A model generated the notes under the pieces. It saw only the letters and a program-made list of their open reading frames with translations. It did no database searches and had not been told where the DNA came from. The position numbers and the translations under genes were made by a program. From a phage, in the sequence record PZ445446.1: 64,000 bases of DNA; one strand, 5' to 3'. Shown one piece after another: positions 2,785-62,246 of the stretch. The first letter of the stretch is position 1. Each line of letters opens with the position of its first letter.

Positions 2785-3825
2785 ATGTCAAAACCTAGTT
2801 TTCCATTAGAGATTTGGGCAGAGGAGGATCAGGTTCTGCCTAACACCCACAGACAGAACAGGCTACGCCCGATTGATGATTTGTGGAGAAAAGGTTGGGA
2901 TCTTGGTCAAAAGCCCTCATGTGAAGAACTTAACTATATTTTCAATATGCTCGGAACTTGGGCAAAATACATTGCTGACGAGCAGATCCCCGCTCAAGAA
3001 GGCCGTTATCTGGTACGTGATAATAACTTGAGTGATCTTTTGAACATTCCTGTTGCCCGTAGAAACCTTGGGATTATTACTAAGGAAGAGGCAGACGCCA
3101 GGTATGTAAAAGTTACAGGTGATACAATGACAGGCCCATTGGGTTTGCAACGTATCAACTTTAAAGCTGCCGAGTCAGATAAGGCTTGGATAGAGACAAC
3201 TATTGGCCCAGATAAGACAACTCTCGACTTTGGGTTAAGTGATAATACCGGGTCGTTTGATGATGGTGGTACATCTACAGTGGATGCGTTCCGTTGGAGA
3301 TTCCAGCCAACTCAGCCGGATATTAATCCAGAGTTCACTTTGATGTACCTTAACGCGATCACGGCTAACCGTGCGCTGTTGAAAGTGGTAGGCAATGTTG
3401 AAGTTGTCGATAACATGAGGTGCAATAACCTTACTATCAGCAATACAGCGACATTCACCAACTGTAATGTGGCTAGTCAGTTGACGGCTGGGTCAGTGTA
3501 TGTTAATGGTGGTGCAAGTTGTGACAGTATGGTTGTAAGAAGCCAGCACTGTGTTGTCGGTAACAGAAATGTGGTTCGCTCTGTGAACGGAGTGACGGCT
3601 AACGGTAACGGTGATGTAACGATCACTATCCCGCAGACAGGTGTGCAAGACATCAGAATCGGTGCAAGACTTGTGGACGGAGTTTCTGAATCTCCAATCC
3701 GCAACGGCTACGTTGTCACAGGCTGGCATTTCGGTGACAAAAAAGAGATGCGTGGTTCAACCTACTGGGCAGGACCTTTACAAAAACTTGTAAATGGTCA
3801 ATGGATCACTGTTAATTATGCATAG
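2785..3825 (+). CDS. tail fiber protein (paralog A)
   Basis: 346 aa; N-terminus (FPLEIWAEEDQVL) and C-terminus (QKLVNGQWITVNYA) conserved with ORF 4837-5883; G/N/T/V-rich repeats typical of fibers. Confidence 0.6.
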   Translation: MSKPSFPLEIWAEEDQVLPNTHRQNRLRPIDDLWRKGWDLGQKPSCEELNYIFNMLGTWAKYIADEQIPAQEGRYLVRDNNLSDLLNIPVARRNLGIITKEEADARYVKVTGDTMTGPLGLQRINFKAAESDKAWIETTIGPDKTTLDFGLSDNTGSFDDGGTSTVDAFRWRFQPTQPDINPEFTLMYLNAITANRALLKVVGNVEVVDNMRCNNLTISNTATFTNCNVASQLTAGSVYVNGGASCDSMVVRSQHCVVGNRNVVRSVNGVTANGNGDVTITIPQTGVQDIRIGARLVDGVSESPIRNGYVVTGWHFGDKKEMRGSTYWAGPLQKLVNGQWITVNYA

Positions 3826-3839
3826 ATCGGAGGACTAGC

Positions 3840-4424
3840 ATGAAAATACTTCAAGAGTTTAAACTTTACCAACCGGGATCTGGCGAATACCGCACCAACA
3901 AGGAAACCAAGGAGCTGACCCCTCAAGAGGTTGAGGATTACACAGCATACACTGGGTATTTTTTACGTAATGATGATGGCGATTGGTATGTGCAGTCACG
4001 AACATTACGACAAGAAAATCCGGGGTGTATCTTCCTACTTGTTGACGAGAAGGGAATTCTTAAGACATCTACAGAAGAACCTGATGCCTTATGGCCTGCT
4101 CCAGGTCTTCGTGTGGTTATCGCCAAAAAAGAAGAGGTACCAGAAAACATTATGCTTCACCACGACGCTTTGCGTTTAGTTGGTGATGAATTTGTCACAG
4201 ACAATGAATTCTTTGTTCAACAGGCAGAGGGTGTCATAGAGACAGAACTTGCTTGGGCTACTGCTAGAATTGGTGCCTATCAAGACATGATTGACCTTGA
4301 ATATGATCTTACTGATGACCAGAAACGTAACATCAGAGATTTGAAAATGTACAGGGTAAAACTTCTTGAAATAGATACATCTAAAGCCCCTGACATTTTC
4401 TTCCCGGAGCGACCTACCCTCTAA
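3840..4424 (+). CDS. putative tail fiber assembly/chaperone protein
   Basis: 194 aa directly downstream of fiber gene; role inferred from position only. Confidence 0.35.
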   Translation: MKILQEFKLYQPGSGEYRTNKETKELTPQEVEDYTAYTGYFLRNDDGDWYVQSRTLRQENPGCIFLLVDEKGILKTSTEEPDALWPAPGLRVVIAKKEEVPENIMLHHDALRLVGDEFVTDNEFFVQQAEGVIETELAWATARIGAYQDMIDLEYDLTDDQKRNIRDLKMYRVKLLEIDTSKAPDIFFPERPTL

Positions 4425-4435
4425 GAGGAGGTGTT

Positions 4436-4750
4436 GTGGAGTTGGATTTGGCGGCATTGTACGGTATCTGCATGGGTACCGTTGTCCCGATCTGTGTATG
4501 GGCTTTCAACCAGTGGCACACCAAATGGAAAGGCATTTCCAAGAGGTTGGATGAACTGGAGAAAGACCTCATCTTAGTGAAAAACAGTATGGTTACAAAA
4601 GATAAACTTGATTCCGTTATCGAGACCCGGTTAAGCAAGCTAGAGGCCGATATTAACGACCTTAAGCAGGATGTCAGGACAGATGTCTCCGGCATCCGAG
4701 CTGATGTACAAAAGATTTTGCACATGCTCGTAGAGCATAGTAAAAGGTAA
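4436..4750 (+). CDS. membrane-anchored coiled-coil protein (GTG start)
   Basis: 104 aa; GAGGAGG RBS before GTG; N-terminal hydrophobic segment then heptad-like coiled coil; i-spanin-like or fiber-associated. Confidence 0.4.
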   Translation: MELDLAALYGICMGTVVPICVWAFNQWHTKWKGISKRLDELEKDLILVKNSMVTKDKLDSVIETRLSKLEADINDLKQDVRTDVSGIRADVQKILHMLVEHSKR

Positions 4751-4757
4751 ACAAAGG

Positions 4758-4795
4758 TCAGAACGGAAAGGACTCCGTTCTTGCATTTTGTTCTC
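4758..4795 (+). terminator. putative intrinsic terminator
   Basis: AGAACGG/CCGTTCT stem then T-rich tract after stop of 4436-4750. Confidence 0.45.
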
Positions 4796-4836
4796 TAAAG
4801 TGTTAAAATAGTCCTAAGGAATTTTCTCAGGAGAAC

Positions 4837-5883
4837 GTGATGACTAAACCAGTTATCCCTCTTGATATTTGGGCCAATCAGGATGTTGTGCTTGAAAATA
4901 CGGGAGAGTTGAATAAATCTCAACCAAAAAAAGAAGAGAGATTGAAAGGTTGGGATATGACACAAAGAATGGCATGTGAAGTTGTTAACTTTGAACTTCA
5001 CATGCTTTCTGCGTGGTTGAAGCATTTAACAGAAGATGTTGTCCCAGGATGGGATAATAGATTCTTAAGGGTCACTAATAATCTAGCAGACGTTCCAGAC
5101 AAAGCTGCTGCACGTCAAGTTCTCAATGTATACTCACCTGAAGAAATGGACGATCTATATGTTGACAAGTCTGGAGACATAATGACTCAGACTCAAACTT
5201 TAGGTCTTCAAAGAATCGAGTTTGCATCTGCGTCAACAGACAGTGCGGCAATATATACCACCATAACTCCAGACAAGACGACGATGGATTTCTGGATTAT
5301 GGACAACATCGGTGGTGCTGACGGCACAGACCTTGATGATCCTTCTCACCAAATAGATGGGTTCCGTTGGAGATTTCAACCTTCTGGTGGGCAGCCTGTG
5401 TTTTCAGCTATGAAGCTCAATGCTATAACTGCCAACCGTGCAAGACTGGCTATCCAAGGAAATCTTGAATGCAACGATGCAAAAAGTTCCTCTGCAAATG
5501 CCAATGCGGTCACGATACCAAGAGCCACTGTTAATGGACAACAATCCTGCGGAAGCGCTCAAATAGGTGGAAGAGTTGATTGTAACGATGAAACCGTCAG
5601 GGGCCAATATGCAACAGTTGGTGGAAGAAACGTGGTCCGCAGGGTAAATGGTAACGGCGCAGACAGTAGCGGTAACCTTACTATCCCTATGCCTAGCAGA
5701 GGGGTTGATGATGTAAGGATAGCAAACCGTTTTAAAACCACCTACAGAGAGTCAAGAGTCTACCCTGGACATGTGATGTGCTCTGGTAACTACGCTTATA
5801 AACACCCTTATCAAGGTGATTACTGGACAGGTGCTATCCAAAAACTTGTAAATGGTCAATGGATCACTATATCTTATGCTTAA
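4837..5883 (+). CDS. tail fiber protein (paralog B)
   Basis: 348 aa; shares N- and C-terminal segments with ORF 2785-3825 (…QKLVNGQWITISYA), central region diverged. Confidence 0.6.
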   Translation: MMTKPVIPLDIWANQDVVLENTGELNKSQPKKEERLKGWDMTQRMACEVVNFELHMLSAWLKHLTEDVVPGWDNRFLRVTNNLADVPDKAAARQVLNVYSPEEMDDLYVDKSGDIMTQTQTLGLQRIEFASASTDSAAIYTTITPDKTTMDFWIMDNIGGADGTDLDDPSHQIDGFRWRFQPSGGQPVFSAMKLNAITANRARLAIQGNLECNDAKSSSANANAVTIPRATVNGQQSCGSAQIGGRVDCNDETVRGQYATVGGRNVVRRVNGNGADSSGNLTIPMPSRGVDDVRIANRFKTTYRESRVYPGHVMCSGNYAYKHPYQGDYWTGAIQKLVNGQWITISYA

Positions 5884-5894
5884 AAAGAGGGTAA

Positions 5895-6161
5895 ATGAAA
5901 CTAACTCAGTTTTTATGGGGACTGGTTGCGGCATCTGATGACCCTACGAAAGTGTCCCAATCTAAGCTATGGTCGAACATAGGCATGGCGGTGATGACTG
6001 GGGTGTTTATTCATATGGGGTATAATGATACGCTTCCTGAATGGTATGCGTGGATATACGCGCCTTCAGTAGCTTGCCCCCAGCTTATTAGCAAATTCAT
6101 CTCGCTCCGGTGGGGTTGCCAGCACCCTGACCACGTTAAAAACGAAGAGCAAAAAGCTTAA
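5895..6161 (+). CDS. small hydrophobic protein
   Basis: 88 aa with hydrophobic stretches (MAVMTGVFIHMGY); downstream of fiber gene. Confidence 0.35.
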   Translation: MKLTQFLWGLVAASDDPTKVSQSKLWSNIGMAVMTGVFIHMGYNDTLPEWYAWIYAPSVACPQLISKFISLRWGCQHPDHVKNEEQKA

Positions 6162-6170
6162 GGAGAAATC

Positions 6171-7916
6171 ATGGCGCAAGACATGACAAGCTTTGAGCAG
6201 GCGGTAGATCAAGTAATTGTTGATTCTGAACGTTTGCACCTGATTGTCAACGGTAACGCTGTGGATGAAGTTGTCGTAGAGGATGGGACCACCATCCCTA
6301 CGGTACGAAAAGCCATGCTTGACACCCTTTATTTTAAAACGCCACCGATCCCTTGGGCGTATGGTGCATCCACAACAGTTTTTAACCAGCTGTACGAGTT
6401 TAAAGGGGACACAGGCCCTCAGTGGTGGTACGCTCCCGCAGCATCAAAATCTAACCCGGTTAGAATGCCAGCAGATCCTTCACAATCTCCAAACTGGAGA
6501 TTATATACCGATTCTGCAGTAATGGCAAAATACTACGCAAAACTTAACAGTCCGAGGTTCGAAGGTGACCCGCGAGTACCTACGCCTCCAATGGACGACA
6601 AATCCGAGTCTATAGCAAACACAGAGTTTGTTGTTGACTATGTGGATAGCATATTTGAAGCCATGGAGGGAATGAAAGTTACTGTAGGGTCTTTGGTGGT
6701 AAAAGGTCTTACAGAACTTGCTAACACTATAGTTGGTGGCACACTCACCTTACATGGGCCTGTTAATGGAGCAGATTCTACTGCACGCTTCAGGAACCTA
6801 ATCCTCACGGCAAATACTTCTACACTTACTTTTGCGTGGAGTGATCCTAAGCATGCAGACTGGAGAAGCACAGAGCTGCAACCTCATGAAGTGTCCACCC
6901 ACAGGGTTATAGCTGACACTATAACTTCTGGGAAACCAGTGGCTAATAATAACGATGTGCATTTTGATGGTCTAGGTAATAACTTTTTTGACTACGTGTA
7001 CATTCGTGGTAATGCCATGAAGGCAGCAACCGAACCGACATTGCAGGTAGATGGAACCACCAGGGTTAAGAACCTTGAGGTGACAGGCACTGTTACAGGG
7101 ATAACCTACTCTGTCGATGGCACCATGATTTACCCTAGCTATATTGAAAGCACGGGGGACGCATTAATAAATGGTGATTTAGAAGTTGGCGGATCTGTAG
7201 TTATTCGAGGTACAGCCTCTATCCAAAACATAGCTCTGAATACCCTAAGAGTCAATGAGCGTGCAACTTTTGAAGGGAAAGGGCTTACAGCCAACAAAGG
7301 TGTAATTACCGAGCTGACAACCACTACTTTAACTGCAACAACTGCAAACTCTGAAAACTGCAACGTTACCAGAAACTTACAGGTAAATGGAGATGTTAGT
7401 TTAAACGCAGCAGGGACGGGCACCACCTACCTTCACAACCTTGAAATATCCGGCACAGTGACTGGGTGGCTGCCAGACTTCTCTAATGTCAACTTTGTTT
7501 GTAATGGCATTAACTCCAGTGGCAAGATAACCACCTCTCAAGAAATTGAGGCGGGTAAAACCATTACTGCCCCTACTTTCCACGCAGGAAAGGTAGATTT
7601 TGATTTAGAGGAGGTTGACGCGTCCAGTGGGACATGGACACCTAACGGGCAGGCCAGTATGTATGTTGTCCACGCGAAAGGGGATTTTACAATAGGACAA
7701 TGGCCTGGTACATCAGCGGAAGATAAACCTTATCCATTCACTGCGGTTATCTATGTCATTCAGGATGCTGTAGGTCACAACGTGACTTTGCACGATAAGT
7801 ATGCTATCCTGTCGGCAACGCCTGTTATTAATAACAAGGCTAATAGTGTTACCTTGCTGCAATTAACATATTGTGGTGTTGGTGATATCGTAGACGTAGT
7901 AATTGCACAACGTTAA
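6171..7916 (+). CDS. tail fiber/tailspike protein
   Basis: 581 aa; long G/T/N/V-rich beta-repeat region; AGGAGA RBS. Confidence 0.55.
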   Translation: MAQDMTSFEQAVDQVIVDSERLHLIVNGNAVDEVVVEDGTTIPTVRKAMLDTLYFKTPPIPWAYGASTTVFNQLYEFKGDTGPQWWYAPAASKSNPVRMPADPSQSPNWRLYTDSAVMAKYYAKLNSPRFEGDPRVPTPPMDDKSESIANTEFVVDYVDSIFEAMEGMKVTVGSLVVKGLTELANTIVGGTLTLHGPVNGADSTARFRNLILTANTSTLTFAWSDPKHADWRSTELQPHEVSTHRVIADTITSGKPVANNNDVHFDGLGNNFFDYVYIRGNAMKAATEPTLQVDGTTRVKNLEVTGTVTGITYSVDGTMIYPSYIESTGDALINGDLEVGGSVVIRGTASIQNIALNTLRVNERATFEGKGLTANKGVITELTTTTLTATTANSENCNVTRNLQVNGDVSLNAAGTGTTYLHNLEISGTVTGWLPDFSNVNFVCNGINSSGKITTSQEIEAGKTITAPTFHAGKVDFDLEEVDASSGTWTPNGQASMYVVHAKGDFTIGQWPGTSAEDKPYPFTAVIYVIQDAVGHNVTLHDKYAILSATPVINNKANSVTLLQLTYCGVGDIVDVVIAQR

Positions 7917-7924
7917 TATATATC

Positions 7925-7955
7925 TAACCGCTCCTGACGGGGCGGTTTTCTTATC
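7925..7955 (+). terminator. putative intrinsic terminator
   Basis: AACCGCTCC-tgac-GGGGCGGTT hairpin then TTCTT between fiber gene and giant gene. Confidence 0.45.
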
Positions 7956-7966
7956 TGGAGAACACA

Positions 7967-10900
7967 ATGCTTCCAATCCCTTTGCTAAAACTTGGTCGTC
8001 ATTTCCTCGATAAGAGGGGTGGAATTAAGGAACTTGCTGTTCTGTCATACCCAATAGACAACAGTGATGGTACAAGCAACACAGTATCCTATGTAAATAG
8101 CTTAGCTATACTTTTTGATGATGGTCAGCTTAATATTACTGGCTATAATAGGTTCGGAGAGTGTCGGACTGGAGATCTTGATACAATAAACTATCCTAAT
8201 GAGGCAGCTTGGAACGTAGACCATGTTTGGAGAGCTGACCGTGCATTTGTAATCCGCACATTCGATAATAAATTTTTCTATATTGGTTGCACAGCTGGTC
8301 TTATCGGATCGGAGGCAGCAGGTGGAAACGATGTTTGTGTCAGAGAGTGGACACCTTTGCCGGAACAGATCGTAACAGGGTTGCATTTGGACACCCATCC
8401 TGAGAGACTTGTTGAAGTAATGGGTGGCGTAAACAATACAGTGTGGGTAATTGCTGCACCAGAGGCTGATGGTATGCTTCACCTGTACGGCTCTGGCAAT
8501 AATACTTACGGCTCTCTTCATGTTGACAAAAATCAGCATGCAACCCCTGTAAAGATTGGTGAGACATCGGAAAATCCTGAAACAGGTCCTTGGAAAAACC
8601 CAAGCATCAACTGCGAGGTGCATGACAACTCTGTTATTTTCGGTGGTCCTAGAGGTTTCTGGATTGCTGGATACGACTTTCTGAGAAATAACAGTAGAAA
8701 CGACCTTGTTTGGCCTCCTGTGCAGATTACTCGTAACGATTTGAGGGGCATTCCTGCAGATGAGGAGTGGAAAGGGTTTATGTGCGGTCCTAACGGGGCA
8801 ATAATTGCCACACAGAGGATGCATAGACCCGATGACCAGCAGCTTGTTAACGTATTTTATGGTCAAAACATTTGGGGAGATGATACATGGCGGGAACTGA
8901 ATATCACCTACACCCATGAGGTAATAATGGCTCGTGGGTACGGCACAAGTGGCATTTTCTTCAATAATGGCACCAAGCAGTATCGTGGATTCTCTCGCAA
9001 CTTGTGTAATGATATTGGTGCACAATCTGCAAACAATAGTCCTAGGTCCGATTTTATCCACTATCAAGCTCTTGCTACAGCTAAATATGTTGAGCAACGC
9101 CTGCCAGTTAGCTGGACAGAGAGTGTTTATTTCCAAGGCATCCATAGAGAAGGTTTCTTAGGGACCTTTACTGTTGTTAATGGTAAACTTTGGTGGTCAG
9201 GCATCCCAAGGGGAAGTTTTGCAGGCTCTAACAACCTGTTTGGAGGCAGACTTAATAGCCAGGGGTTCACAGAGGTTCCTGAGAATTGGTATAAAAATGT
9301 CCCGGTAGACAGTTGGGGTGTTGAGGATATTTTCGACGTTAACGGTGTTAGCAGCGTTAGCAATATTTACATTGGTGACACGGTCAAGATGAAGTTGAAG
9401 CCTCAGCCAGAGGGGGCTACGTTCATTATTGACAAGATTGAACTGGTAAATGCTGCAGGTACGGTTGTTACAGATGCAAATTACCAATTCTCCACCAACT
9501 GGAACCACGGCGGGGCCAACGAAGTTGTTGTTACCCAGTATAACAGAAATGTTAACAGACGTGGCCTGTACTCTGTAAAAATAACCTATCATGACAAGCA
9601 TGGCACAGGCAGAACCCATACGACAAGGACTTTGAACTGGAACACCATAGTTCCTGCGTATCCGTCCAACGGCAAGTGGCATACTGTCGGTAGAAACAAA
9701 CAGTTCCATGTCAACGATACTGTATACTTCGGGCTTAACGCAGCTCAACCTGCTGTAGAAGGCGATACATCGTATATAGTACGACTCCATAGAATGGATG
9801 CCGGGTCTGTAACCTACGATGTGACTCAGGAGATCTACGATCAGAGACGTACCACGTATGACAATGTTGTGAAAACACAAGCCTTGTGGGAGTTCAACCC
9901 TAACGGCAGAGGCGGTAAAATGTTGCAGGTCAACGAGCAAAACGGGACATCGTTGACTGTCCATGAACATCCAGATCCTTGGCCTGATCCTGGAAAACCT
10001 AACTCTGGTGCTCGTACACTGAAAATTGTTAGCCATGATGCAGGATATTTCGGAATACGCTGGGAAGCCACAGTAAGATATGCCGACGGGACAACAAACA
10101 ACATAGGGATCACCCTTGATGGCACTAGTGAGGATAACTCCCTGAAAATTGCCTACACCCCTAGGGGCATCTCTATTGACAACATAGATGTTGTTCGCAA
10201 CGGTTACGGCGATGTGAATGTCAAAGTTACTCTTGGCGAACATCTTGGTGGGGAAAGGATCATCATGTATGCCTTTGATCATGATCCGCGCACCAATGGG
10301 ACTTATGCAAATCAGGCATGGAGTTATCTGATAAATGCACCTGAGCCGAATACTAAAGAGTTCTACTACGGTATGAAGCGAGATGTGTGCAAGAAAACAG
10401 GAACACATGACTGGATTGCTATCTGCGTTAAAGATGAGCGCACAGCTTGGGATGAGCCTGTTAACAGATGGTTCATAGGTATTCCTACCAGAAGTGATAA
10501 GTATGTCGCAGAATATATTGTATGCATGGGCGGTACCAACCTAAACATGTGTTGGAACGAAGATGTAAACAAATACTCTGATTATGACTATATGAGGGAT
10601 TACTCTTGTAATTTGTGGTTTAACCAAACTACAGGTTACCCTCCGCGTCAGGCAAGGGTAAATCCTGCAATCTTTACAGATACGCAGGTTTTCTTGACAA
10701 AACAGGCCAACGAGGTCCAGACCTTCAAGAACAAATACGACCCTAATAAGTGGTTCTATAACTGCTATGGGGCATTTTTCTGGGGACCTGGAGAATTACC
10801 TGGTGGTGGCTCTTGTTTTGAGGCTGCAACTTACGCCAGTGACAGATTTATGGGCCAGGTCAAGAAATACAAGATAATTCCAGGGCCTGAAACTTTAGGC

Positions 10901-13920: not shown

Positions 13921-14139
13921 TCACAGATCTCCAACAACTTCCCAAATACCCCAGTGAGCATCTATATCCTTGATAAAGTATCTTTCTCCACGGTTTGTCC
14001 ACACACCTATCCCAACTTTACCATCTATCCCATTGTATACATCTGCCTCATACTCTTTGCCCGGTGTAAAGTGTACACCCATCATAAGGGCTGTTATTCC
14101 ATTAGGATTTTTAAATTTAACAAATTTTACTTTGCTCAT
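13921..14139 (-). CDS. hypothetical protein
   Basis: 72-aa ORF in tight minus-strand array. Confidence 0.4.
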   Translation of the reverse strand: MSKVKFVKFKNPNGITALMMGVHFTPGKEYEADVYNGIDGKVGIGVWTNRGERYFIKDIDAHWGIWEVVGDL

Positions 14140-35753: not shown

Positions 35754-38531
35754 ATGAGCATGTGGTCGTTCGATTTTGAGTCATCCGGTTTGCTGGAAGA
35801 CCCAGATCTTTATTATCACTGCGGCCTGTTTAAAGAGCTGAATAAGAACCGTTTTATGCTGTTCCTTCCTCTGAATGACCGCACACACTACTCCGAGGAG
35901 GATATAGAGAAGGCCAAGAACTTTATTCTGGCAAAGAAAACTCTTTATAAGGATTTTGAAGTTCGCATAGCAGATTTTTCGGAGTTGGAAGGTTGGCTTA
36001 CAGGAAATTCTGACTGGTCACCAACAGCTTTGAACTGCCATAACTGCTACAGTTATGACTTTATGCTGATGGAGAGATTATCCGGTATTCATTTTGATAT
36101 GTTCCGTGATCCTAAATGCATGGGGACTATCAACGACCACCAGGTTAACCTGTTTGATACGTTGGCGATGAGCAGAATCTTGTGGCCTGATCGCCCTTTA
36201 CCAAAAGGTTGTCCGGACTCTGTATTCAACCCGGTTACTAAGAAAATGCAGCCTGTTGGTCCTCACGGCCTTATGGCATGGGGCTACGCCCTTGGTAACC
36301 AGAAAGTTCAAATTGATGACTGGCGCGATCTTCCGTTGTGGAAGTATGTGGATCGTGTATTCGAGGACGTTATCATCCAGGAGCTGCTCTGGAAAGAGCT
36401 GGTAGCGGAATCAAAAGGTGTATTCTACGGCAAATCTGACATGCAGAACTTTATGTACGATCCAGCCAAAGAGAAGCCGAAAGGGTTCAAGAAAATCACC
36501 TGGAAGAACGCATTACGCCGAGGCATGCTGCAGCACTTCCTGATGGAGCTGCAGGCCCGTCAGGGTGTGTATTTCGACATAGATGGGGCTATTGCTTTAC
36601 GTGACCGTTGCGATGCGTGGATGAAAGAGATCGCTGATCGTGTTGAACCTCAACTTCCTTTAAAAGAGTTGTCAATGTCTCAGCGACCCAAGTTCCCTGA
36701 AAAGCCGTTTAACCAAGATGGGACAATCTCCAATAATGGTTGGAAATGGTTAAAAGATAAGCTTGGCTATCCTGTAGACATGAGCGCTTTAGAATTCAAA
36801 GCCCCGCCTAAGCGAGCATTTACCTCCACAGGAGATGTCAGCAAGATGGGGATAAAATGGTGCGAAGAGATGGGCTGCAAAGACCCCGACAAGATGGCTG
36901 ATTTCTTGAGAGGTTATATTAAGGGCACCTCCACACCACAACCTTTACCTAAAGAGCTGATGGATCAGGCAATAAGTGATCTGCAGCAGAAGCGAATGCC
37001 TGACTGCAAGATACCTATGAAAATCAGCAATCAGGACGACATTAAGCGATACCTGATCAGTGCTGGTTGGCTTCCGACAATGTGGAGAACTAAGGATGTA
37101 ACTAAGGACAGCAAGAAGAAAGCTCTACCTGATGCAGATGTTGATGCACGAGTATATGCATACATGGACGAGCTTTTAGAGTCAGAGTATTGTGACCTAA
37201 TTATCAACTTCTGGAACAAAACTGATGCTAAGTTTCAGACAACAGTGCACAAGTTCCGAAGCTTTCCTAACTCCGAAAGGATTAAAAAGGAAGTGTTCGG
37301 GAAAATACGCAGAAAAGCCAGGGCACTTATTACTTCTCCGCAACTGAAAGATACGTTTGGACACCTATGTCCGAATCTTGAAAAATTGAACGGAGAGATG
37401 GCTAAAGATATCGTCTTGTGGTTATCATTGCGAAACCGCAGATCGGTCCTTGATCCAATCAAGGAGGATAAGGTTGATACTGGTCTTCTTAATCACCCAC
37501 GTTTGAAGATTGACCATAAGCTTCCTGCTAAAAGCTCTGGATTAACAAACACTTCCCGACAGAAACACAGTATTTGTGCAAACATGCCTAAACCATCTCC
37601 TAAAGTGGTTATGGGTAAAGAGATGCGTAGCTTGTGGGGTGTTCCTCCTGGATATTTTGAGATCGGTATTGACGGGTCCAACTTAGAGCAGCTTATCGGG
37701 GCTTGGGGTGCCTTTGAGTTCGACAACGGCTTGTACTATGATGTTGTAAGTAACGGAGACGCACACCAAAACAATGCTGAGGCATATACAAAAGTAGCAG
37801 GCAGAGAGGTGTCTCGTAACGACGGTAAACCTATCACGTATGGGGTTATGTACGGGGCACAAAAAGATAAAGTTGCAGATATGCTGGATATCTCCCCAGA
37901 GTTGGGGCAAAGGGTGATCGATGCACTTTGGGATGCCAACCCCGGTCTTAAGGGGCGCAAAGAGGATCTGGAGAAATTCTGGGAAGCAACAGGTAAGAAG
38001 TTTATCTACTCTTTTGATGGTCATGCTATCTGGACCCGATCTAAACACTCTTTACTTAATGCATACCAACAAAATGGTGGTGCATCGCTGTGTGACTTAG
38101 TTGGGATACTCATGCACCACCAAATGGTGAAGCGTGGGTGGTACGATGAAGGTGTCCGTCGTATTATTTATTACCATGATGAGTACCAACTTCAGGTCCC
38201 TGACACACCTAAGTATAAGACTGTGTACACCTTCGACACAATTGAAGAATTGGAAGCATTTAAGGCAGAGCAGGAGGCCAAACTTCATGTGTTCGACGGT
38301 CATAAGTACAAAAAGGCACGCAAGGATGAAAACGGAAACGAAGTGGTTGACAGAGACGGAAACACGGTGTACGATCCTATCCTGAACGATGACGGAAAGC
38401 TTGAACTTATCTGGAGCCCTGTGGGTGAAATGGTGGTGCATTGCTTCTGGCAAGCTTCTAAAATGATGGGCGTTCCATTCCAGATCACAGGTGAATACTT
38501 GTGCGGTCGTAACTGGGGTGATTGTCACTAA
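35754..38531 (+). CDS. DNA polymerase, family A, with 3'-5' exonuclease domain
   Basis: 925 aa; Exo I FDFESSG; Pol motif A DGSNLEQ, motif B RNDGKPITYGVMYGA, motif C YHDEYQL. Confidence 0.85.
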   Translation: MSMWSFDFESSGLLEDPDLYYHCGLFKELNKNRFMLFLPLNDRTHYSEEDIEKAKNFILAKKTLYKDFEVRIADFSELEGWLTGNSDWSPTALNCHNCYSYDFMLMERLSGIHFDMFRDPKCMGTINDHQVNLFDTLAMSRILWPDRPLPKGCPDSVFNPVTKKMQPVGPHGLMAWGYALGNQKVQIDDWRDLPLWKYVDRVFEDVIIQELLWKELVAESKGVFYGKSDMQNFMYDPAKEKPKGFKKITWKNALRRGMLQHFLMELQARQGVYFDIDGAIALRDRCDAWMKEIADRVEPQLPLKELSMSQRPKFPEKPFNQDGTISNNGWKWLKDKLGYPVDMSALEFKAPPKRAFTSTGDVSKMGIKWCEEMGCKDPDKMADFLRGYIKGTSTPQPLPKELMDQAISDLQQKRMPDCKIPMKISNQDDIKRYLISAGWLPTMWRTKDVTKDSKKKALPDADVDARVYAYMDELLESEYCDLIINFWNKTDAKFQTTVHKFRSFPNSERIKKEVFGKIRRKARALITSPQLKDTFGHLCPNLEKLNGEMAKDIVLWLSLRNRRSVLDPIKEDKVDTGLLNHPRLKIDHKLPAKSSGLTNTSRQKHSICANMPKPSPKVVMGKEMRSLWGVPPGYFEIGIDGSNLEQLIGAWGAFEFDNGLYYDVVSNGDAHQNNAEAYTKVAGREVSRNDGKPITYGVMYGAQKDKVADMLDISPELGQRVIDALWDANPGLKGRKEDLEKFWEATGKKFIYSFDGHAIWTRSKHSLLNAYQQNGGASLCDLVGILMHHQMVKRGWYDEGVRRIIYYHDEYQLQVPDTPKYKTVYTFDTIEELEAFKAEQEAKLHVFDGHKYKKARKDENGNEVVDRDGNTVYDPILNDDGKLELIWSPVGEMVVHCFWQASKMMGVPFQITGEYLCGRNWGDCH

Positions 38532-38580
38532 TGTAAACTATCAGCACAGGGAGGTGCTGTTGAGCAAAGAGGAGACTTTT

Positions 38581-38865
38581 ATGGTAGTAGAGCCAACAAA
38601 AACATTTACATCCATGACCATTCCTGTTATTATGCAGGTGGAGTGTGTTCAGGTATCTCAAGTGTGGCCTGGCACCAAAATCCCAACAGGGCCTGATTTC
38701 TTTCAGGTTGGGAAAGTGTACAATGTCTGGAAGGCACCAGATTGTTACCCTTTCATTAAAGATGACCGTGGGATGCTGTGGTATCTTGGAAATGACTTGA
38801 CACTGCACCTTGGGAATGCTATTATTGCAGTATTCAGACTTAACAAGAAGGAGACCGATCAATGA
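38581..38865 (+). CDS. small protein, KDDxGxxW paralog family
   Basis: ATG after AGGAGA RBS; C-terminal IKDDRGMLWYLGNDL shared with neighbours. Confidence 0.45.
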   Translation: MVVEPTKTFTSMTIPVIMQVECVQVSQVWPGTKIPTGPDFFQVGKVYNVWKAPDCYPFIKDDRGMLWYLGNDLTLHLGNAIIAVFRLNKKETDQ

Positions 38866-39089
38866 CGACTTTGGTTAAAGCTACCTTTGTAGAAGAAAAG
38901 ATGACAGACCTGTCATTCTTTAAAGAAGGAAAGACCTACGAGGTTTATTACGATAAAGCTCGTGCAAACAAAATGATTAAAGACGAGGAAGGGGTTGCCT
39001 GGTATATCTCTCACCTGGCAAACGGTGAGTATCATATCTACGGAACCACTTTGCTTGCCAAGTTTGTAGTTGTTGAAGAGGACCTATGA
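38862..39089 (+). CDS. small protein, KDDxGxxW paralog family
   Basis: 75 aa; IKDEEGVAWYISHLANG; ATGA overlap. Confidence 0.45.
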   Translation: MTTLVKATFVEEKMTDLSFFKEGKTYEVYYDKARANKMIKDEEGVAWYISHLANGEYHIYGTTLLAKFVVVEEDL

Positions 39090-39280
39090 AAGTAAAGTAT
39101 CTTGCTGAAGGTATGAATAGGTATTTTACCCTTGGTGAAGAATATTGGCCCTTTACAAACAACGGTGATGTCTACGTGAAAGATAATTTCGGCACGCCGT
39201 GGTTTCTGCACTCTAATGGGCTGGGATACTCCATTTACTGCGGTGCAGTGAACAACACAACTCTTGCAGAGTTCGTTTAG
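39086..39280 (+). CDS. small protein, KDDxGxxW paralog family
   Basis: 64 aa; VKDNFGTPWFLHSNGLG. Confidence 0.45.
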   Translation: MKVKYLAEGMNRYFTLGEEYWPFTNNGDVYVKDNFGTPWFLHSNGLGYSIYCGAVNNTTLAEFV

Positions 39281-39290
39281 AGGAGGTAGG

Positions 39291-39662
39291 ATGTTAGTAA
39301 AAGGTACCCATACAGTCAAACAACGTATTGAAGTTGAGATTGATGATTGTGAGCTGAAGCATATTTTACGGTCATGCTCCAACGTTTTGCTCCTTAGTAT
39401 TCTCCAGGAGCGAGCGGAGAACGAGTTCTTAAATGCACTGGCAGGCCGCCCTGGTGATTTCTGTGTGCGTAAGCGTGGTGACAACAAGTCATGGCTGTGG
39501 GAGATAGACGCAGAATGGGATTACCATAAAAATGAGGGTATAGATGAACCTATTCGTGAATTGACGGACAACGAGGTTCAGATGTACAATGAAGTTTGTC
39601 AGTGGGCAAAAAGTCAACAAACTTATCTTGATCCTTGGTGGATGATCGAAAATAGTCGTTGA
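39291..39662 (+). CDS. hypothetical protein
   Basis: ATG after GAGGAGG RBS (track start 39264 trimmed); weak variant RKRGDNKSWLWEID. Confidence 0.45.
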   Translation: MLVKGTHTVKQRIEVEIDDCELKHILRSCSNVLLLSILQERAENEFLNALAGRPGDFCVRKRGDNKSWLWEIDAEWDYHKNEGIDEPIRELTDNEVQMYNEVCQWAKSQQTYLDPWWMIENSR

Positions 39663-39738
39663 CAGGAAGTAAGATTAGATATAAGATGCTTCACACAAAC
39701 AGAGCGTTGATTGTTTAACACTTAAGGAGACCGCTAAG

Positions 39739-39993
39739 ATGAAAATTACTCTGAAGCCAGAATGCGTTGAAAATGACCGAGCTTTTAAAGATTGCACAAT
39801 CGGTGCAATTTATGAAGCAGAGTTTTGTGAGAACCCTTTGGTAAAAGCCCTTCTGGAAGAAGGAGCTCCTCTATCACAGGAAGAGCTTGATGAGTTGGAA
39901 AACTCAGCACAGTGCCTTACCTTTAAAGATGATGAAGGAGACTCTGTCTGGTGCACTGTTAATGAAGTAGTTTTTGTAAAACCTGAACATTAA
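39739..39993 (+). CDS. small protein, KDDxGxxW paralog family
   Basis: 84 aa; FKDCTIGAIY … FKDDEGDSVWCTV; paralog of 40057-40329. Confidence 0.5.
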   Translation: MKITLKPECVENDRAFKDCTIGAIYEAEFCENPLVKALLEEGAPLSQEELDELENSAQCLTFKDDEGDSVWCTVNEVVFVKPEH

Positions 39994-40056
39994 TGCTTGA
40001 CAACAGTCATAGGGCCTACTATAATGGCCCTATCAAAACGGAAGGGGACCACAGCA

Positions 40057-40329
40057 ATGACCAAACAATATCAACGAATTAAAGCCAAGGTTAAGCCAGA
40101 CTATCTGGAGAAGGACTCTGCTTTTCGGGACTGCACAGCTGACAAAGTTTACACAGGGGCCGTCCTGTTGAACGATGAACTTGAAGTAGATATTCTGGGT
40201 AAAGAGGCCACTATTAAGGACGACCAAGGCGATTATGTTTGCTGCACCACACGTGAGCTAGAAATCTTAGAATACTTCGGTGAAATCTTCACCTCTCTTG
40301 ATGATTACTTAGATGATGAGGAAGCGTGA
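40057..40329 (+). CDS. small protein, KDDxGxxW paralog family
   Basis: Internal ATG after GGAAGGGG; FRDCTADKVY … IKDDQGDYVCCTT. Confidence 0.45.
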   Translation: MTKQYQRIKAKVKPDYLEKDSAFRDCTADKVYTGAVLLNDELEVDILGKEATIKDDQGDYVCCTTRELEILEYFGEIFTSLDDYLDDEEA

Positions 40330-40718
40330 TGAAAAATATTTGGGATATCGATATCTTTGAAGCCTCTAAGCTTGATGGTGCTGATGGAGTGATTATGGTG
40401 TCTGATGGCAAGGCAACACTAACTTCTGGGGATATCATCTATGCCTTGGACGAGCTGGCGCTTCTGAAATCTACCGGTAACACTTTAGAGGAGCGTCTTC
40501 AAGGCTTCGCCTTCAAAGAAGGCACAAATACCGCCATGATGTGCACCACACGGACAGTTCAAGTTGGTAACGGTGTCTATATGATCATTGCTGTGTGTCC
40601 TAAATTCAGCAACGTCAACAAAGATGATGCTGACGCTGTCAACGATGTGGTTGTTCTCTTCGTGGGTGACGCTATGGCAGATCTGATGAATGCAGGAGAA
40701 GCAGCAAATGAAGACTGA
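40326..40718 (+). CDS. hypothetical protein
   Basis: 130-aa ORF, ATGA overlap. Confidence 0.45.
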   Translation: MMKNIWDIDIFEASKLDGADGVIMVSDGKATLTSGDIIYALDELALLKSTGNTLEERLQGFAFKEGTNTAMMCTTRTVQVGNGVYMIIAVCPKFSNVNKDDADAVNDVVVLFVGDAMADLMNAGEAANED

Positions 40719-41010
40719 AAACATCACCCCCGCAGGGTTCTTAAAAGTATACCGTGAACTGCTATATACTACAGAGGACAGTGTTCTAGAGTATCCAGAA
40801 TATCTTTTGCTGTATAAGTATCTGCAGGAGGCTGGTGAAAATCTGCCAGTTAGTGCAGAAGGTGGTCCGAACTGGATATACAGCGCATGGAGAAAGGTTG
40901 ACATTCTCCCCGACCCAGGTAAAGATATGGTAGTTTGGCAGCTTATTAACAACATCGGGATTCCAATCTTTGATGAAGCTGTTAAAATCTATTTTGAACT
41001 TGACGATTAA
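40708..41010 (+). CDS. hypothetical protein
   Basis: ATG after AGGAGAAG (track start 40690 trimmed). Confidence 0.4.
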   Translation: MKTENITPAGFLKVYRELLYTTEDSVLEYPEYLLLYKYLQEAGENLPVSAEGGPNWIYSAWRKVDILPDPGKDMVVWQLINNIGIPIFDEAVKIYFELDD

Positions 41011-41027
41011 TATCAGGAGACCTTAAG

Positions 41028-41273
41028 ATGACTGAAGTAGTTGCTCGCGCAGGACAGAAAGTACGTTGTGTTGAAGTAGGTTTTGGTGGCAAAGGGTGTC
41101 AAAACTTGACTCAAGGTAAGGAATACGCTGTTATTTCTGGTGGTGGCGACGAAAGTATTGTGTTCGAGGGCCACATCCTGGATGCTGAAAACTTTGAAAT
41201 CTTTGACGACGATGGAGATCCGATCACCTGCCTGCTGGACGGGAATTGGGGAACTTTCGAAGTGATTGGCTAA
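41028..41273 (+). CDS. hypothetical small protein
   Basis: 81 aa; AGGAGA RBS; FDDDGDPITCLLDGNWG weakly related to paralog family. Confidence 0.45.
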   Translation: MTEVVARAGQKVRCVEVGFGGKGCQNLTQGKEYAVISGGGDESIVFEGHILDAENFEIFDDDGDPITCLLDGNWGTFEVIG

Positions 41274-41356
41274 CAAATACCTATTGTAATTTACAGAAGG
41301 GGATGCTAAAATAGTGTCTCCTTCTATGTTGTTCAAATAAAATCGGAGATTCCATA

Positions 41357-41722
41357 ATGGAACAAATGAACGATCAAGCGTCGGTTGCGATGAACGAGCA
41401 AGAACAACCTCAAGAATTTTTCTTAGGGTTAAGTAAAGATCAAGTGTCTCTTCTGCTAGTGCTTTCTTCTTTCATGGGAAGACTTCAGGAGCTCACACAA
41501 CAGCCAGAGGCTGAACAATTATTCCAAGCTTTGCGTGAAGAAGAAAAATATCGTCGTTTGGACTATGCCTTAGGTTGGGTAGCTCAACAACGAGATATGC
41601 TGATGGCCCTCTCTGGGACCACAAGTTTTGCAATGGGCCTGCTGGCTCAAGTTCAGGACAAATTAATTCAAGCAGGGTTTGCACACACGGCAAACACTAA
41701 CGAAGAACAAGGAGACAAATAA
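41357..41722 (+). CDS. hypothetical protein
   Basis: 121-aa ORF with RBS. Confidence 0.45.
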   Translation: MEQMNDQASVAMNEQEQPQEFFLGLSKDQVSLLLVLSSFMGRLQELTQQPEAEQLFQALREEEKYRRLDYALGWVAQQRDMLMALSGTTSFAMGLLAQVQDKLIQAGFAHTANTNEEQGDK

Positions 41723-42948
41723 TGAGCGTTATTCAACAATTTGCTAACCCGATGAATCCGCGTGAAACTGTTTTACTGGCTCACGGCATGATTAAACGTG
41801 TCAGCATCAAACCTATCAAAGGTGCTGATCCTACAACAGGTATTAAAACCACTGTGTGGCAAGGTAAGAAAATTGAGTCCAGCCACACCATCTCTTTACT
41901 GATTTCTGAACTGGATTCCTCTGATAACCTGCTTCAAGGTGGTGAAGAAGTCTGGATCAGTATGGGTGATAAACTGCTTAAACCGGGTCATCAAGACTCT
42001 GTCTCTGTTAAAATTGATGACAAGTGGGAAACCGTAACACCGGGATGGATCGTAAATATCCCTTTGAAGGCAAACGAGCATAACGGTAAGACCTATTACA
42101 AAGGCTCACTGGCTAAGATGGTCAAGCTGGGGGCAGGAGAGGCTCCAGCAGCGACTCAGCAGCAAAAACAGCAACAAGGTGCACAATCACAAGGCCAGAA
42201 GCAGAAACCTCAGCAGAATGCCAATCAGGACGTTTTACGCATCTATGGTGATGTGACTCAGATTGTTGGCAACGTGGTTACTGTTAATGACCACAAGATT
42301 GGCGAAGGTGCTATGGTTGTCACTGATGAGCAGCTTAAAGACCTGGTGGTAGGTGGTCGTGTTGCAGCCATTGTTGACAAAGACACCGGAAACATTATCA
42401 GTGGTTTCAAAGCCTATCCACCTAAGTCAGAGAACGGCACCCAAGGCTCTGGTGGCAAGCGTAAATCCTCTTACGACCCTATTGGTGTGGAGACGGGACA
42501 TAGCATCAATGCGTTGCAAATCATCCTAGATCGCGGGTTTAAGGTGGACGACCCACTAAGCGTGGCTAAAACACTGCACGTAGTCACCATTGAGCTTAAG
42601 AAAGAGTATGCTCAAGCCACCAACCGAACTGAGGATGAAGTAGGTGCCAGTGTCGGTAATGCGGTGTTGAACGCTTGTCGCCGTATTGACAAGAAAACGA
42701 AAGTTGATGATTTTGCAGCGGCAATTACTGCAGAAGCAAAAGATGTCTTGACTAATCTGGCTGAGCCGTTGTACGATTGGATCAAGAACGGTGCTGGGTC
42801 AACTGACCATCAAGAACCTCAGGCTGCCAAACAGGAAGCAGCTCCACAGCAAAATACTGTAGACGCTCCTCCTGTAAATGATGAGGAAGATGACCCGATG
42901 GATCAGAATCCAGCACAGTACGCCTTTGATGATGACATCCCATTCTAA
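41722..42948 (+). CDS. ssb: single-stranded DNA-binding protein with acidic C-terminal tip
   Basis: 408 aa; Q-rich linker; terminal …AFDDDIPF matches the bacterial SSB C-terminal tip; OB-fold assumed N-terminal. Confidence 0.6.
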   Translation: MSVIQQFANPMNPRETVLLAHGMIKRVSIKPIKGADPTTGIKTTVWQGKKIESSHTISLLISELDSSDNLLQGGEEVWISMGDKLLKPGHQDSVSVKIDDKWETVTPGWIVNIPLKANEHNGKTYYKGSLAKMVKLGAGEAPAATQQQKQQQGAQSQGQKQKPQQNANQDVLRIYGDVTQIVGNVVTVNDHKIGEGAMVVTDEQLKDLVVGGRVAAIVDKDTGNIISGFKAYPPKSENGTQGSGGKRKSSYDPIGVETGHSINALQIILDRGFKVDDPLSVAKTLHVVTIELKKEYAQATNRTEDEVGASVGNAVLNACRRIDKKTKVDDFAAAITAEAKDVLTNLAEPLYDWIKNGAGSTDHQEPQAAKQEAAPQQNTVDAPPVNDEEDDPMDQNPAQYAFDDDIPF

Positions 42949-61994: not shown

Positions 61995-62246
61995 TTAACG
62001 TTCTACAAAAATACCGTTCAGTTCAATAACCAGGAATTTCTGGTCTTCACTATCGTCTCGTGCCAGCACCTCACAGACGTATCGGTCATCCCCATCATCA
62101 TCGCAGTCAAATACAAGACTGAGGACTTTATCATGGTAAACCTTCGCCACTACCGCCTCGTAAGTATTGCCGATTGTGAATCCAAGATAATCTCCGATGC
62201 ATTTGACAACAACATGGTCTCCAGCATTTAAGTCAATCTTCGTCAT
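61995..62246 (-). CDS. hypothetical small acidic protein
   Basis: Internal ATG after AAGGAGCG RBS chosen over track start 62312. Confidence 0.45.
   Translation of the reverse strand: MTKIDLNAGDHVVVKCIGDYLGFTIGNTYEAVVAKVYHDKVLSLVFDCDDDGDDRYVCEVLARDDSEDQKFLVIELNGIFVER

Follow-up and report, generated by a model that had tools for sequence, protein, structure and literature searches.

Small proteins with a predicted Gp54-type barrel encoded downstream of the DNA polymerase in an rV5-like phage

The closest described counterpart of the genes treated here, and the one characterized protein with this fold, is Gp54 of phage Bas11, a protein of 66 amino acids (aa) that is non-essential in the laboratory and known only as the trigger of CapRelSJ46 (PMC11578894). 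Gp54 binds and activates this fused toxin-antitoxin through its zinc-finger-like antitoxin domain, which it contacts with residues G24, I25, S39, L41, and W43, and its barrel partly unfolds in the process (PMC11578894). The authors of that work termed the barrel topology very rare, named SH3 domains, with a 3-10 helix in place of one strand, as its nearest structural neighbors, left its function open, speculated that Gp54 inhibits another defense system, and cited T7 Ocr as a model (PMC11578894). Here, we describe an array of small genes at positions 38581-41273 of a 64,000-nucleotide phage sequence (record PZ445446.1; the whole of this stretch is referred to as the window). Six or more diverged copies of a small barrel lie between a DNA polymerase gene and a probable SSB-like gene, and the product of gene B at least has the Gp54 fold, as modeled. 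Overall, we consider the interval to hold a lineage-specific expansion of one β-barrel domain of about 60 to 70 residues, with the unrelated genes D, G, and H interspersed; the copies of the domain would probably serve as non-enzymatic binding modules. The fold and family assignment is well supported.

Gene content and shared motif of the array

Over positions 38400-41400, the window matches Escherichia phage MaxBurger (Bas54; Vequintavirus, rV5-like) at 100% identity and a further 116 records at 87-99.8%, with an intact array in 117/117 records. By this measure the window genome is a Vequintavirus (rV5-like), distinct from MaxBurger because a homing-endonuclease insertion situated further downstream in MaxBurger is absent here. 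The interval 38581-41273 is filled by nine plus-strand open reading frames (ORFs), which are coding sequences in MaxBurger and in the 116 other Vequintavirus records; all nine carry the annotation 'hypothetical protein', and their rV5 counterparts are ORFs 224-216. Upstream lies a family-A DNA polymerase gene (35754-38531), and the downstream neighbor encodes a 408-aa protein (41722-42948). The nine genes are as follows.

Gene A, 38581-38865, plus strand: 94 aa; rV5 ORF224; phrog_12922; longer N-terminal region; motifs FFQVGKVY and IKDDRGMLWY; family member.
Gene B, 38862-39089, plus strand: 75 aa; phrog_12623; motifs FFKEGKTYEV and IKDEEGVAWY; start overlaps the stop of A (ATGA); family member.
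Gene C, 39086-39280, plus strand: 64 aa; phrog_12802; motifs YFTLGEEY and VKDNFGTPWF; start overlaps the stop of B; family member.
Gene D, 39291-39662, plus strand: 123 aa; phrog_6273; interspersed, not a member.
Gene E, 39739-39993, plus strand: 84 aa; phrog_12544; motifs CTIGAIYEA and FKDDEGDSVWC, with a helical insertion between them; net charge -13; paralogue of F, probable distant member.
Gene F, 40057-40329, plus strand: 90 aa from the ATG at 40057; phrog_11936; motif IKDDQGDYVCC; acidic C-terminal tail LDDYLDDEEA; paralogue of E.
Gene G, 40326-40718, plus strand: 130 aa; phrog_8284; interspersed, membership unsupported.
Gene H, 40690-41010, plus strand: 106 aa from 40690 (annotated start 40708); Pfam DUF7238; not a member.
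Gene I, 41028-41273, plus strand: 81 aa; phrog_4927; motifs GQKVRCVEVG, LTQGKEYAV, and IFDDDGDPITC; insertion between β2 and β3; net charge -10; family member.

The original prediction, made from the sequence of the window, was of six or more consecutive ORFs sharing a conserved motif. The motif instances that it quoted are present in genes A, B, C, E, and F. Stated as [IVLF]KD[DEN]xG, a pattern defined only after inspection of the data, the motif occurs five times in the six-frame translation of the window (71,470 residues), always in these five genes. When the residues of the nine array proteins were shuffled 20,000 times, the mean number of matches was 0.018 and no shuffle reached five. Genes E and F are duplicated over their length, as had been proposed (35% identity over 77 aa; blastp E 1e-11; Smith-Waterman z = 16); no DNA-level repeat joining the two was found, and the duplication is therefore old. 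Genes A and B are likewise related (blastp E 2e-5, Smith-Waterman z = 10, hhalign 82%), as are B and C (Smith-Waterman z = 5.5, P = 0.0005). No direct comparison, by sequence or by ortholog profile, of the A/B/C group with E/F or with I was significant, and hidden Markov models (HMMs) built from the window paralogues alone gave no cross-match between A/B/C and E/F. Alignment and HMM building, suggested at the time as a check, thus recovered significant similarity within A/B/C and within E/F, but the link between the two groups is only moderate and runs through the external profiles described below.

A paralogous family is therefore real, but the series is broken by the unrelated genes D, G, and H, none of which has significant similarity to the family profiles (hhalign E at least 0.09 with ortholog profiles that include the divergent lineage). 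Around ...CTTR..., gene G resembles E/F weakly and only locally (hhalign E 0.016-0.05; Smith-Waterman P 0.03-0.25; profiles E at least 0.09); as a relative of E/F it was rejected, the likeness seen by eye (ALLEEG/ALLKSTG, ...CTT...) being unsupported by statistics. The conserved block, described earlier as C-terminal, is central and forms the β3-β4 turn in the AlphaFold2 model of gene B, and a second conserved element, (F/W)-T-x-G-K-x-Y ahead of β2, had been overlooked. With a real but non-consecutive family and a central motif, the initial observation is borne out in part.

Predicted fold and wider family

The AlphaFold2 model of the gene B product, computed from the A/B/C ortholog alignment, has a predicted local distance difference test (pLDDT) score of 90.2. 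Strands span residues 3-10, 25-31, 36-40, 46-48, 56-60, and 64-73, a short helix spans residues 12-17, and KDEEG forms the β3-β4 turn. The model displays the six-stranded β-barrel and long β1-β2 loop by which the fold of 9AXB, the Gp54 structure, was recognized; structure prediction, another of the checks proposed at the outset, thus yielded a six-stranded, SH3-related barrel of the Gp54 type. Smith-Waterman alignment of B with Gp54 is in register (FKEG/FKKG ... G-x-x-W; shuffle P 0.0065), and the residues of Gp54 that contact CapRel are the counterparts of the two conserved elements in the window family. Searched against PDB sequences, the A/B/C profile matched nothing and did not detect Gp54. 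When the model was searched against BFVD with Foldseek, many small uncharacterized phage proteins were returned at query-normalized template modeling (TM) scores of about 0.6-0.8, from Drexlerviridae (several per genome), Cronobacter phage CR9, a Vequintavirus, and others.

Word-indexed searches with B, with the A/B/C alignment, and with the E/F/I alignment retrieved no distant relatives, only orthologues from Vequintavirus, some of which are frameshifted. Searched exhaustively with HMMER, the A/B/C profile gave 16 matches at E <= 1e-3. Among them, P0099 is a single-domain protein, as are the divergent orthologues P0089 and P0093, and four others (P0091, P0094, P0097, and P0098) contain 2-5 tandem copies of a family unit of about 65 residues. 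Several further matches (P0088, P0090, P0092, P0095, and P0096), which are long repetitive or Ig/fn3-rich proteins, were set aside as probably spurious. From the metagenomic multi-repeat proteins only, with zero window sequences, an independent profile was built and searched against the 1082 six-frame ORFs of the window. It recovered, by hmmsearch E value, B (8e-10), C (1.2e-7), A (8e-7), I (1.2e-4), and a further gene, K (1.6e-3). By hhalign, A, B, and C matched the same profile at 95-96% (A 95%, C 96%) and I at 87% (E 4e-6). In the rest of the MaxBurger genome, gene K was the sole additional match, with no further detectable copy. The two candidates that lie outside the array are the following.

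Gene K, 61995-62246 (also given as 61998-62246), minus strand: 83 aa; bas54_0143; phrog_12851; motifs GDHVVVKC, FTIGNTYEA, and DCDDDGDDRYVC; family member outside the interval first flagged.
Gene L, 13921-14139, minus strand: 72 aa; phrog_30425/15992; motifs HFTPGKEYEA and WGIWEVVG; candidate member.

Both are far from the array, within minus-strand blocks of small genes. Connections through PHROGs agree with the profile searches. The repeat proteins match the PHROGs of C (12802; P0091 and P0094) and I (4927; P0098 and P0094, at 1e-23 and 2e-18), P0099 matches that of B as well (12623), and the repeat proteins also match phrog_3523 and phrog_3249, which are themselves weakly matched by A, B, and C. 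The signature that emerges for the superfamily consists of a strand h-x-V-x-C, the element (F/W)-T-x-G-K-x-Y leading into β2, an acidic β3-β4 hairpin h-K-D-D-x-G-x-x-(W/h), in its broader form h-x-D-D-x-G-x-x-(W/h), and a terminal hydrophobic strand. As judged from these profile comparisons, genes A, B, C, I, and K are secure family copies. Gene L, which scored hmmsearch E 0.07-0.4 before its inclusion in any profile and matches phrog_10169, as do gene I, P0097, and P0098, is a possible one. A 78-aa 'minor capsid protein' of phage isim among the BFVD matches was considered as the counterpart of gene L and rejected, since in isim the homologue of L forms the N-terminal part of a protein of 135 aa.

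The non-significant direct comparisons of A/B/C with E/F, and the fact that repeat-protein matches extend to the PHROGs of B, C, and I but not to those of E or F, would fit two or three unrelated families, in which A/B/C (with I and K) are Gp54-like barrels, E/F form a separate SH3-like family, and KDDxG is a convergent, structurally favored acidic β-turn. We regard this as possible but unlikely. Across profiles, hmmsearch gave E 0.006-6 for gene E and 0.16-3.4 for gene F, and both genes rank immediately below the accepted members among the 1082 ORFs. The combined E+F ortholog profile matches the independent repeat profile at hhalign P 0.0011 (21%). It also matches, at E 2-3e-5 (73-77%) over 45-52 columns and with both motifs in register, a 'GD-type' profile composed of I, K, L, three Bas11 proteins, the domain of a DUF3310 fusion, and units of P0094/P0098/P0099, some of which were picked by eye. 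Controls D, G, H, and J were non-significant in the hhalign comparisons (E at least 0.09). Further, three profiles are matched by the F orthologue of the divergent lineage (E 3e-4 to 9e-4, in a set of 17 proteins), and the order of secondary-structure elements in E/F is the same as in gene B. The proximity of Gp54 to SH3 domains that have a 3-10 helix where Gp54 has one of its strands also speaks against a separation of SH3-like from Gp54-like barrels (PMC11578894). Genes E and F are thus probable family copies, moderately supported by profile alignment.

Multi-repeat relatives were found in several replication settings. In one locus (L017), they lie between DnaB_C/DUF6011 genes and Toprim/ResIII/RecA genes; in a second (L018), two adjacent four-repeat proteins are encoded near a Prim-Pol gene. 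The Enterococcus phage phiM1EF22 (Herelleviridae) has a relative directly after its primase, and Streptococcus phage SP-QS1 has one five genes after DNA polymerase I. As translated, phiM1EF22 ORF051 comprises two family barrel domains and a helical C-terminal tail. This protein (L021 3519-4151) and SP-QS1 gp64 (L022 2471-3103) are labeled 'putative cytidine deaminase'; no deaminase domain was found in these Enterococcus and Streptococcus phage proteins. Positions 10279-10689 of L018, a metagenomic phage contig, encode a family domain fused to the N-terminus of a DUF3310 domain, and an Enterococcus phage DUF3310 protein (BFVD A0A5S9MMN4) also matches the gene B model. Together, these sequence matches indicate a domain that is widespread in phages, as a single domain or in 2-5 tandem copies, typically within replication modules.

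Selection, turnover, and candidate roles

In a comparison of nine Vequintavirus genomes (87-100% nucleotide identity), no frame was disrupted and every gene was under purifying selection. The mean pairwise ratio of non-synonymous to synonymous substitution rates (dN/dS) ranges from 0.02 (A, J) to 0.20 (B), with 0.024 for gene A. In B, C, and F, the non-synonymous changes are concentrated in the residues on either side of the hairpin, whose D-x-G is invariant. The dN/dS comparison across related phages that had been recommended therefore gave a divided answer, with purifying selection everywhere and hairpin-flanking changes in three genes. The same holds for the original description 'DIVERSIFYING': changes do cluster near the hairpin and a deep lineage has diverged, but dN/dS stays at 0.02-0.20 and the array is conserved in every record that matched.

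A deeper-branching, Vequintavirus-like lineage (L025; contig AATLQU010000010.1, E. coli assembly GCA_012894635.1, 136.8 kb; positions 2800-9100) keeps the array. Orthologue identities there are 43% for B, 47% for F, 57% for I, 65% for E, 69% for C, and 73% for A, versus 97% for gene H. Its array also contains two additional B-like copies and three inserted unrelated genes, one of them Ead/Ea22-like. From this divergence and these copy changes, we infer that the family is kept within the genus and that it turns over and diverges quickly on a longer scale. In the same lineage, an HNH-like gene splits off the polymerase C-terminus. Gene H is conserved at 97% even at this distance, and gene D is kept after the polymerase in Mydovirus KB57 and Seunavirus 4MG; D and H behave as more 'core' than the barrel paralogues around them. 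Gene A of phage slur16 (L014), also protein P0032, carries a 33-nucleotide in-frame tandem duplication exactly over the hairpin motif (CHPFIKEKAPN/CYPFIKDD), and the same length difference occurs in the APECc02 and rV5_ev records. Region 38400-41400 is also matched by 16 records that bear the name 'Campylobacter phage' (host C. jejuni), at about 95-96% identity in the listed records, which suggests contamination or host mis-assignment; the two examined are flagged UNVERIFIED.

Searches of Pfam and PHROGs identified no enzymatic domain in the window family proteins, and genes E, F, I, and K encode proteins with a net charge of -10 to -13 and an isoelectric point (pI) of 4.1-4.3. With no catalytic signature and a mostly acidic character, the proteins are therefore most likely non-enzymatic binding modules, and we take binding as the most likely mechanism. 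The genes would probably be transcribed by host RNA polymerase from sigma-70-type promoters, along with the replisome genes. Each paralogue might then engage a different protein partner through its β2-β4 face and hairpin; this surface is proposed because orthologues differ in it and because CapRelSJ46 is contacted by the corresponding region of Gp54. Likely partners would be host or phage proteins of DNA metabolism or defense, whose activity could be blocked, redirected, or sensed. The following elements flank the genes.

Sigma-70-like promoter TTGACA-17-TAAGAT, 39659-39687, plus strand: upstream of gene E; counterpart of the annotated rV5 promoter P220; consensus match only.
Sigma-70 promoter TTGACA-17-TATAAT, 39997-40025, plus strand: perfect consensus, upstream of gene F; consensus match only.
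Terminator-like hairpin, 41295-41325, plus strand: directly 3' of gene I; pattern match only.

The -10 box of the gene F promoter lies inside a 7-bp inverted repeat, TAGGGCC/GGCCCTA (39997-40033 region), which could be an operator or an RNA hairpin; in the MaxBurger annotation, gene F starts at an ATG overlapping this -10 box. Downstream of the hairpin, the plus-strand gene at 41722-42948 encodes the 408-aa protein (phrog_4477), which gave no match in a Pfam search and ends in ...AFDDDIPF. The final DDDIPF is what we take to be the same tip as the C-terminus of E. coli SSB, and the protein may be a phage SSB or a mimic of the SSB interaction tail. This tip is buried in MaxBurger, where a homing-endonuclease insertion right after ...DDIPF removes the stop codon and adds 16 residues; the window is without this insertion.

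The suggestion that these genes are host-takeover or anti-defense effectors is a reasonable guess, and a replication-linked role fits their recurrent placement beside replication genes in unrelated phages equally well. Pfam and PHROGs searches revealed no homology to any characterized inhibitor. Several points weigh against the binding-module reading. The Pfam model of Gp54, PF25180 ('Phage antiviral trigger protein Gp54'; gathering threshold, 27 bits), matched none of the window proteins A-J, K, and L at E <= 1, and it scored Gp54 of Bas11 itself at 116 bits (E 6e-34) as a positive control. The triggering of CapRelSJ46 is the sole functional datum for the fold, and close homologues of Gp54 lack it (PMC11578894). 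Strong purifying selection and genus-wide presence are atypical for accessory counter-defense genes. In addition, the best support for E/F comes from the GD-type profile, which was assembled by eye and includes sub-threshold members, and the conserved G and W may be purely structural, as parts of a turn and of the core, rather than a binding site.

Genus-wide presence and purifying selection within Vequintavirus are, in turn, compatible with replisome accessory modules, adaptors that tether or organize phage or host replication proteins (polymerase, primase-helicase, SSB). The repeat proteins would then be scaffolds, and the Vequintavirus copies a split scaffold. In five phage backgrounds unrelated to one another, the domain adjoins a gene for a polymerase, primase, helicase, or RecA, and both the acidic C-terminal tail of gene F and the SSB-like DDDIPF tip of the neighboring protein fit such a role. 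Adjacency is weak evidence, however, because unrelated accessory genes are common in replication modules. In the syntenic region behind the polymerase, only homologues of D and H were found in Mydovirus KB57, Seunavirus 4MG, Certrevirus CR3, Pectobacterium phage POP18, ICP1, and Vibrio phage eugene. Since the array is missing at this position from the sister genera and from polymerase-sharing ICP1-like phages, it is not a core part of the replisome. Gp54 of Bas11, too, is dispensable in the laboratory (PMC11578894). We therefore hold a replisome role to be a tentative alternative, less probable than an expanded family of binding modules.

In a bolder form of the binding-module reading, the Gp54-like barrel, far from being a rare oddity, would serve phages as a general scaffold that can be rapidly retargeted to clamp small domains of the host, in the way that Gp54 partly unfolds to clamp the zinc-finger-like sensor domain of CapRel. 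Vequintavirus would carry a battery of 6-8 diverged copies, each neutralizing or decoying a different host defense or DNA-metabolism protein, and the tandem-repeat proteins beside the primases of other phages would be the same battery in fused form. This extension is speculative, and we consider it distinctly unlikely as it stands.

Less probable still are small nucleic acid-binding barrels (Sm/KOW/Tudor/Sso7d-like) with a role in coating DNA or in regulating the transcription or translation of the phage. Binding of RNA or DNA is frequent among SH3-like barrels, the top match of gene F is the KOW-like insertion domain of Ski2, and phrog_14634, which shares the domain, is labeled 'DNA binding protein'; this label, however, covers a 245-residue profile of which the first 64 positions alone match. 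The products of E, F, I, and K are strongly acidic, D-D/E makes up the most conserved loop, and the sequences contain no basic patches, so that nucleic acid binding is very unlikely on grounds of charge. That the genes are chance ORFs or virion components, as the labels 'minor capsid protein', 'tailspike sialidase', and 'cytidine deaminase' on some BFVD and GenBank relatives might suggest, is scarcely credible, given purifying selection, intact frames in all genomes examined, a location within the replication region and outside the structural module, and 'cytidine deaminase' proteins that hold only two family domains and a helical tail in place of any deaminase domain.

Relation to known families and folds

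These genes were already known as hypothetical proteins and PHROG singletons, and the fold was known from one structure; the genome paper of rV5 does not discuss the array genes. New are the link between genes and fold, the superfamily signature, the tandem-repeat architectures, and the association with replication modules. The Gp54 fold would thus be carried by a large, unrecognized phage superfamily that has its own motif and no Pfam model, present in multiple copies in rV5-like phages and Drexlerviridae and fused as 2-5 domains in phages of Gram-positive hosts. The family offers a set of natural variants for asking what the fold binds and whether its members trigger or block CapRel-type or other defense sensors, and MaxBurger, with which the window is identical over the array, belongs to the BASEL collection and can be grown on E. 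coli K-12. Should these prove to be ordinary dispensable accessory genes, the assignment would still upgrade the annotation of seven 'hypothetical protein' families.

By sequence, the nearest Pfam family is DUF7244 (PF23896; e.g., Bas11 gp41), at sub-threshold level only. It has the same order of motifs over about 57 residues (K-V-K-C-V-E, G-x-V-Y-E-A, K-I-K-D-E-S-G). Of the window proteins, I alone matches it, at 14.5 bits and E 0.038 (gathering threshold, 27). Among 24 superfamily sequences, four match DUF7244 at E <= 1, the sole significant match being Bas11 gp41 itself (1.7e-26), and the DUF3310-fusion relative matches weakly (E 0.082). Besides gp41, Bas11 encodes two more small proteins with G-x-x-Y ... 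D-E-D-G-D. PHROGs 3523, 4927, 3249, 10169, and 16833, all of 'unknown function', are relatives at the sequence level. Gene I falls within phrog_4927, B and C weakly match phrog_3249, and A and B weakly match phrog_3523, whose 315-residue profile is matched by the repeat proteins at E down to 3e-46. In PHROGs, the window proteins are spread over seven separate single-genus families, with no link or function recorded.

Among folds, the SH3-like barrels (SH3, KOW, Tudor, and the SH3 domain of RecD) are similar in size and general architecture; the gene B product differs from them in its sixth strand and in lacking a signature for binding of proline-rich peptides or nucleic acid. T7 Ocr, a restriction inhibitor and PARIS trigger, is a functional analogy only, being a small, acidic, non-enzymatic binder of host proteins with an unrelated fold. 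A transposon sequencing (Tn-seq) preprint that names a 'gp54' concerns an unrelated phage and was set aside. Gp54 of Bas11 (PDB 9AXB; Zhang et al., Nature 2024) comes from a Drexlerviridae phage and differs from the window family in its low identity (16%), in having YHSG instead of the acidic KDDxG, and in the absence of the G-K-x-Y element. Like the window proteins, however, it is small and encoded among other short genes, and it shares with the modeled gene B product the six-stranded, SH3-related barrel, the long β1-β2 loop, F-K-x-G before β2, and G-x-x-W at the hairpin.

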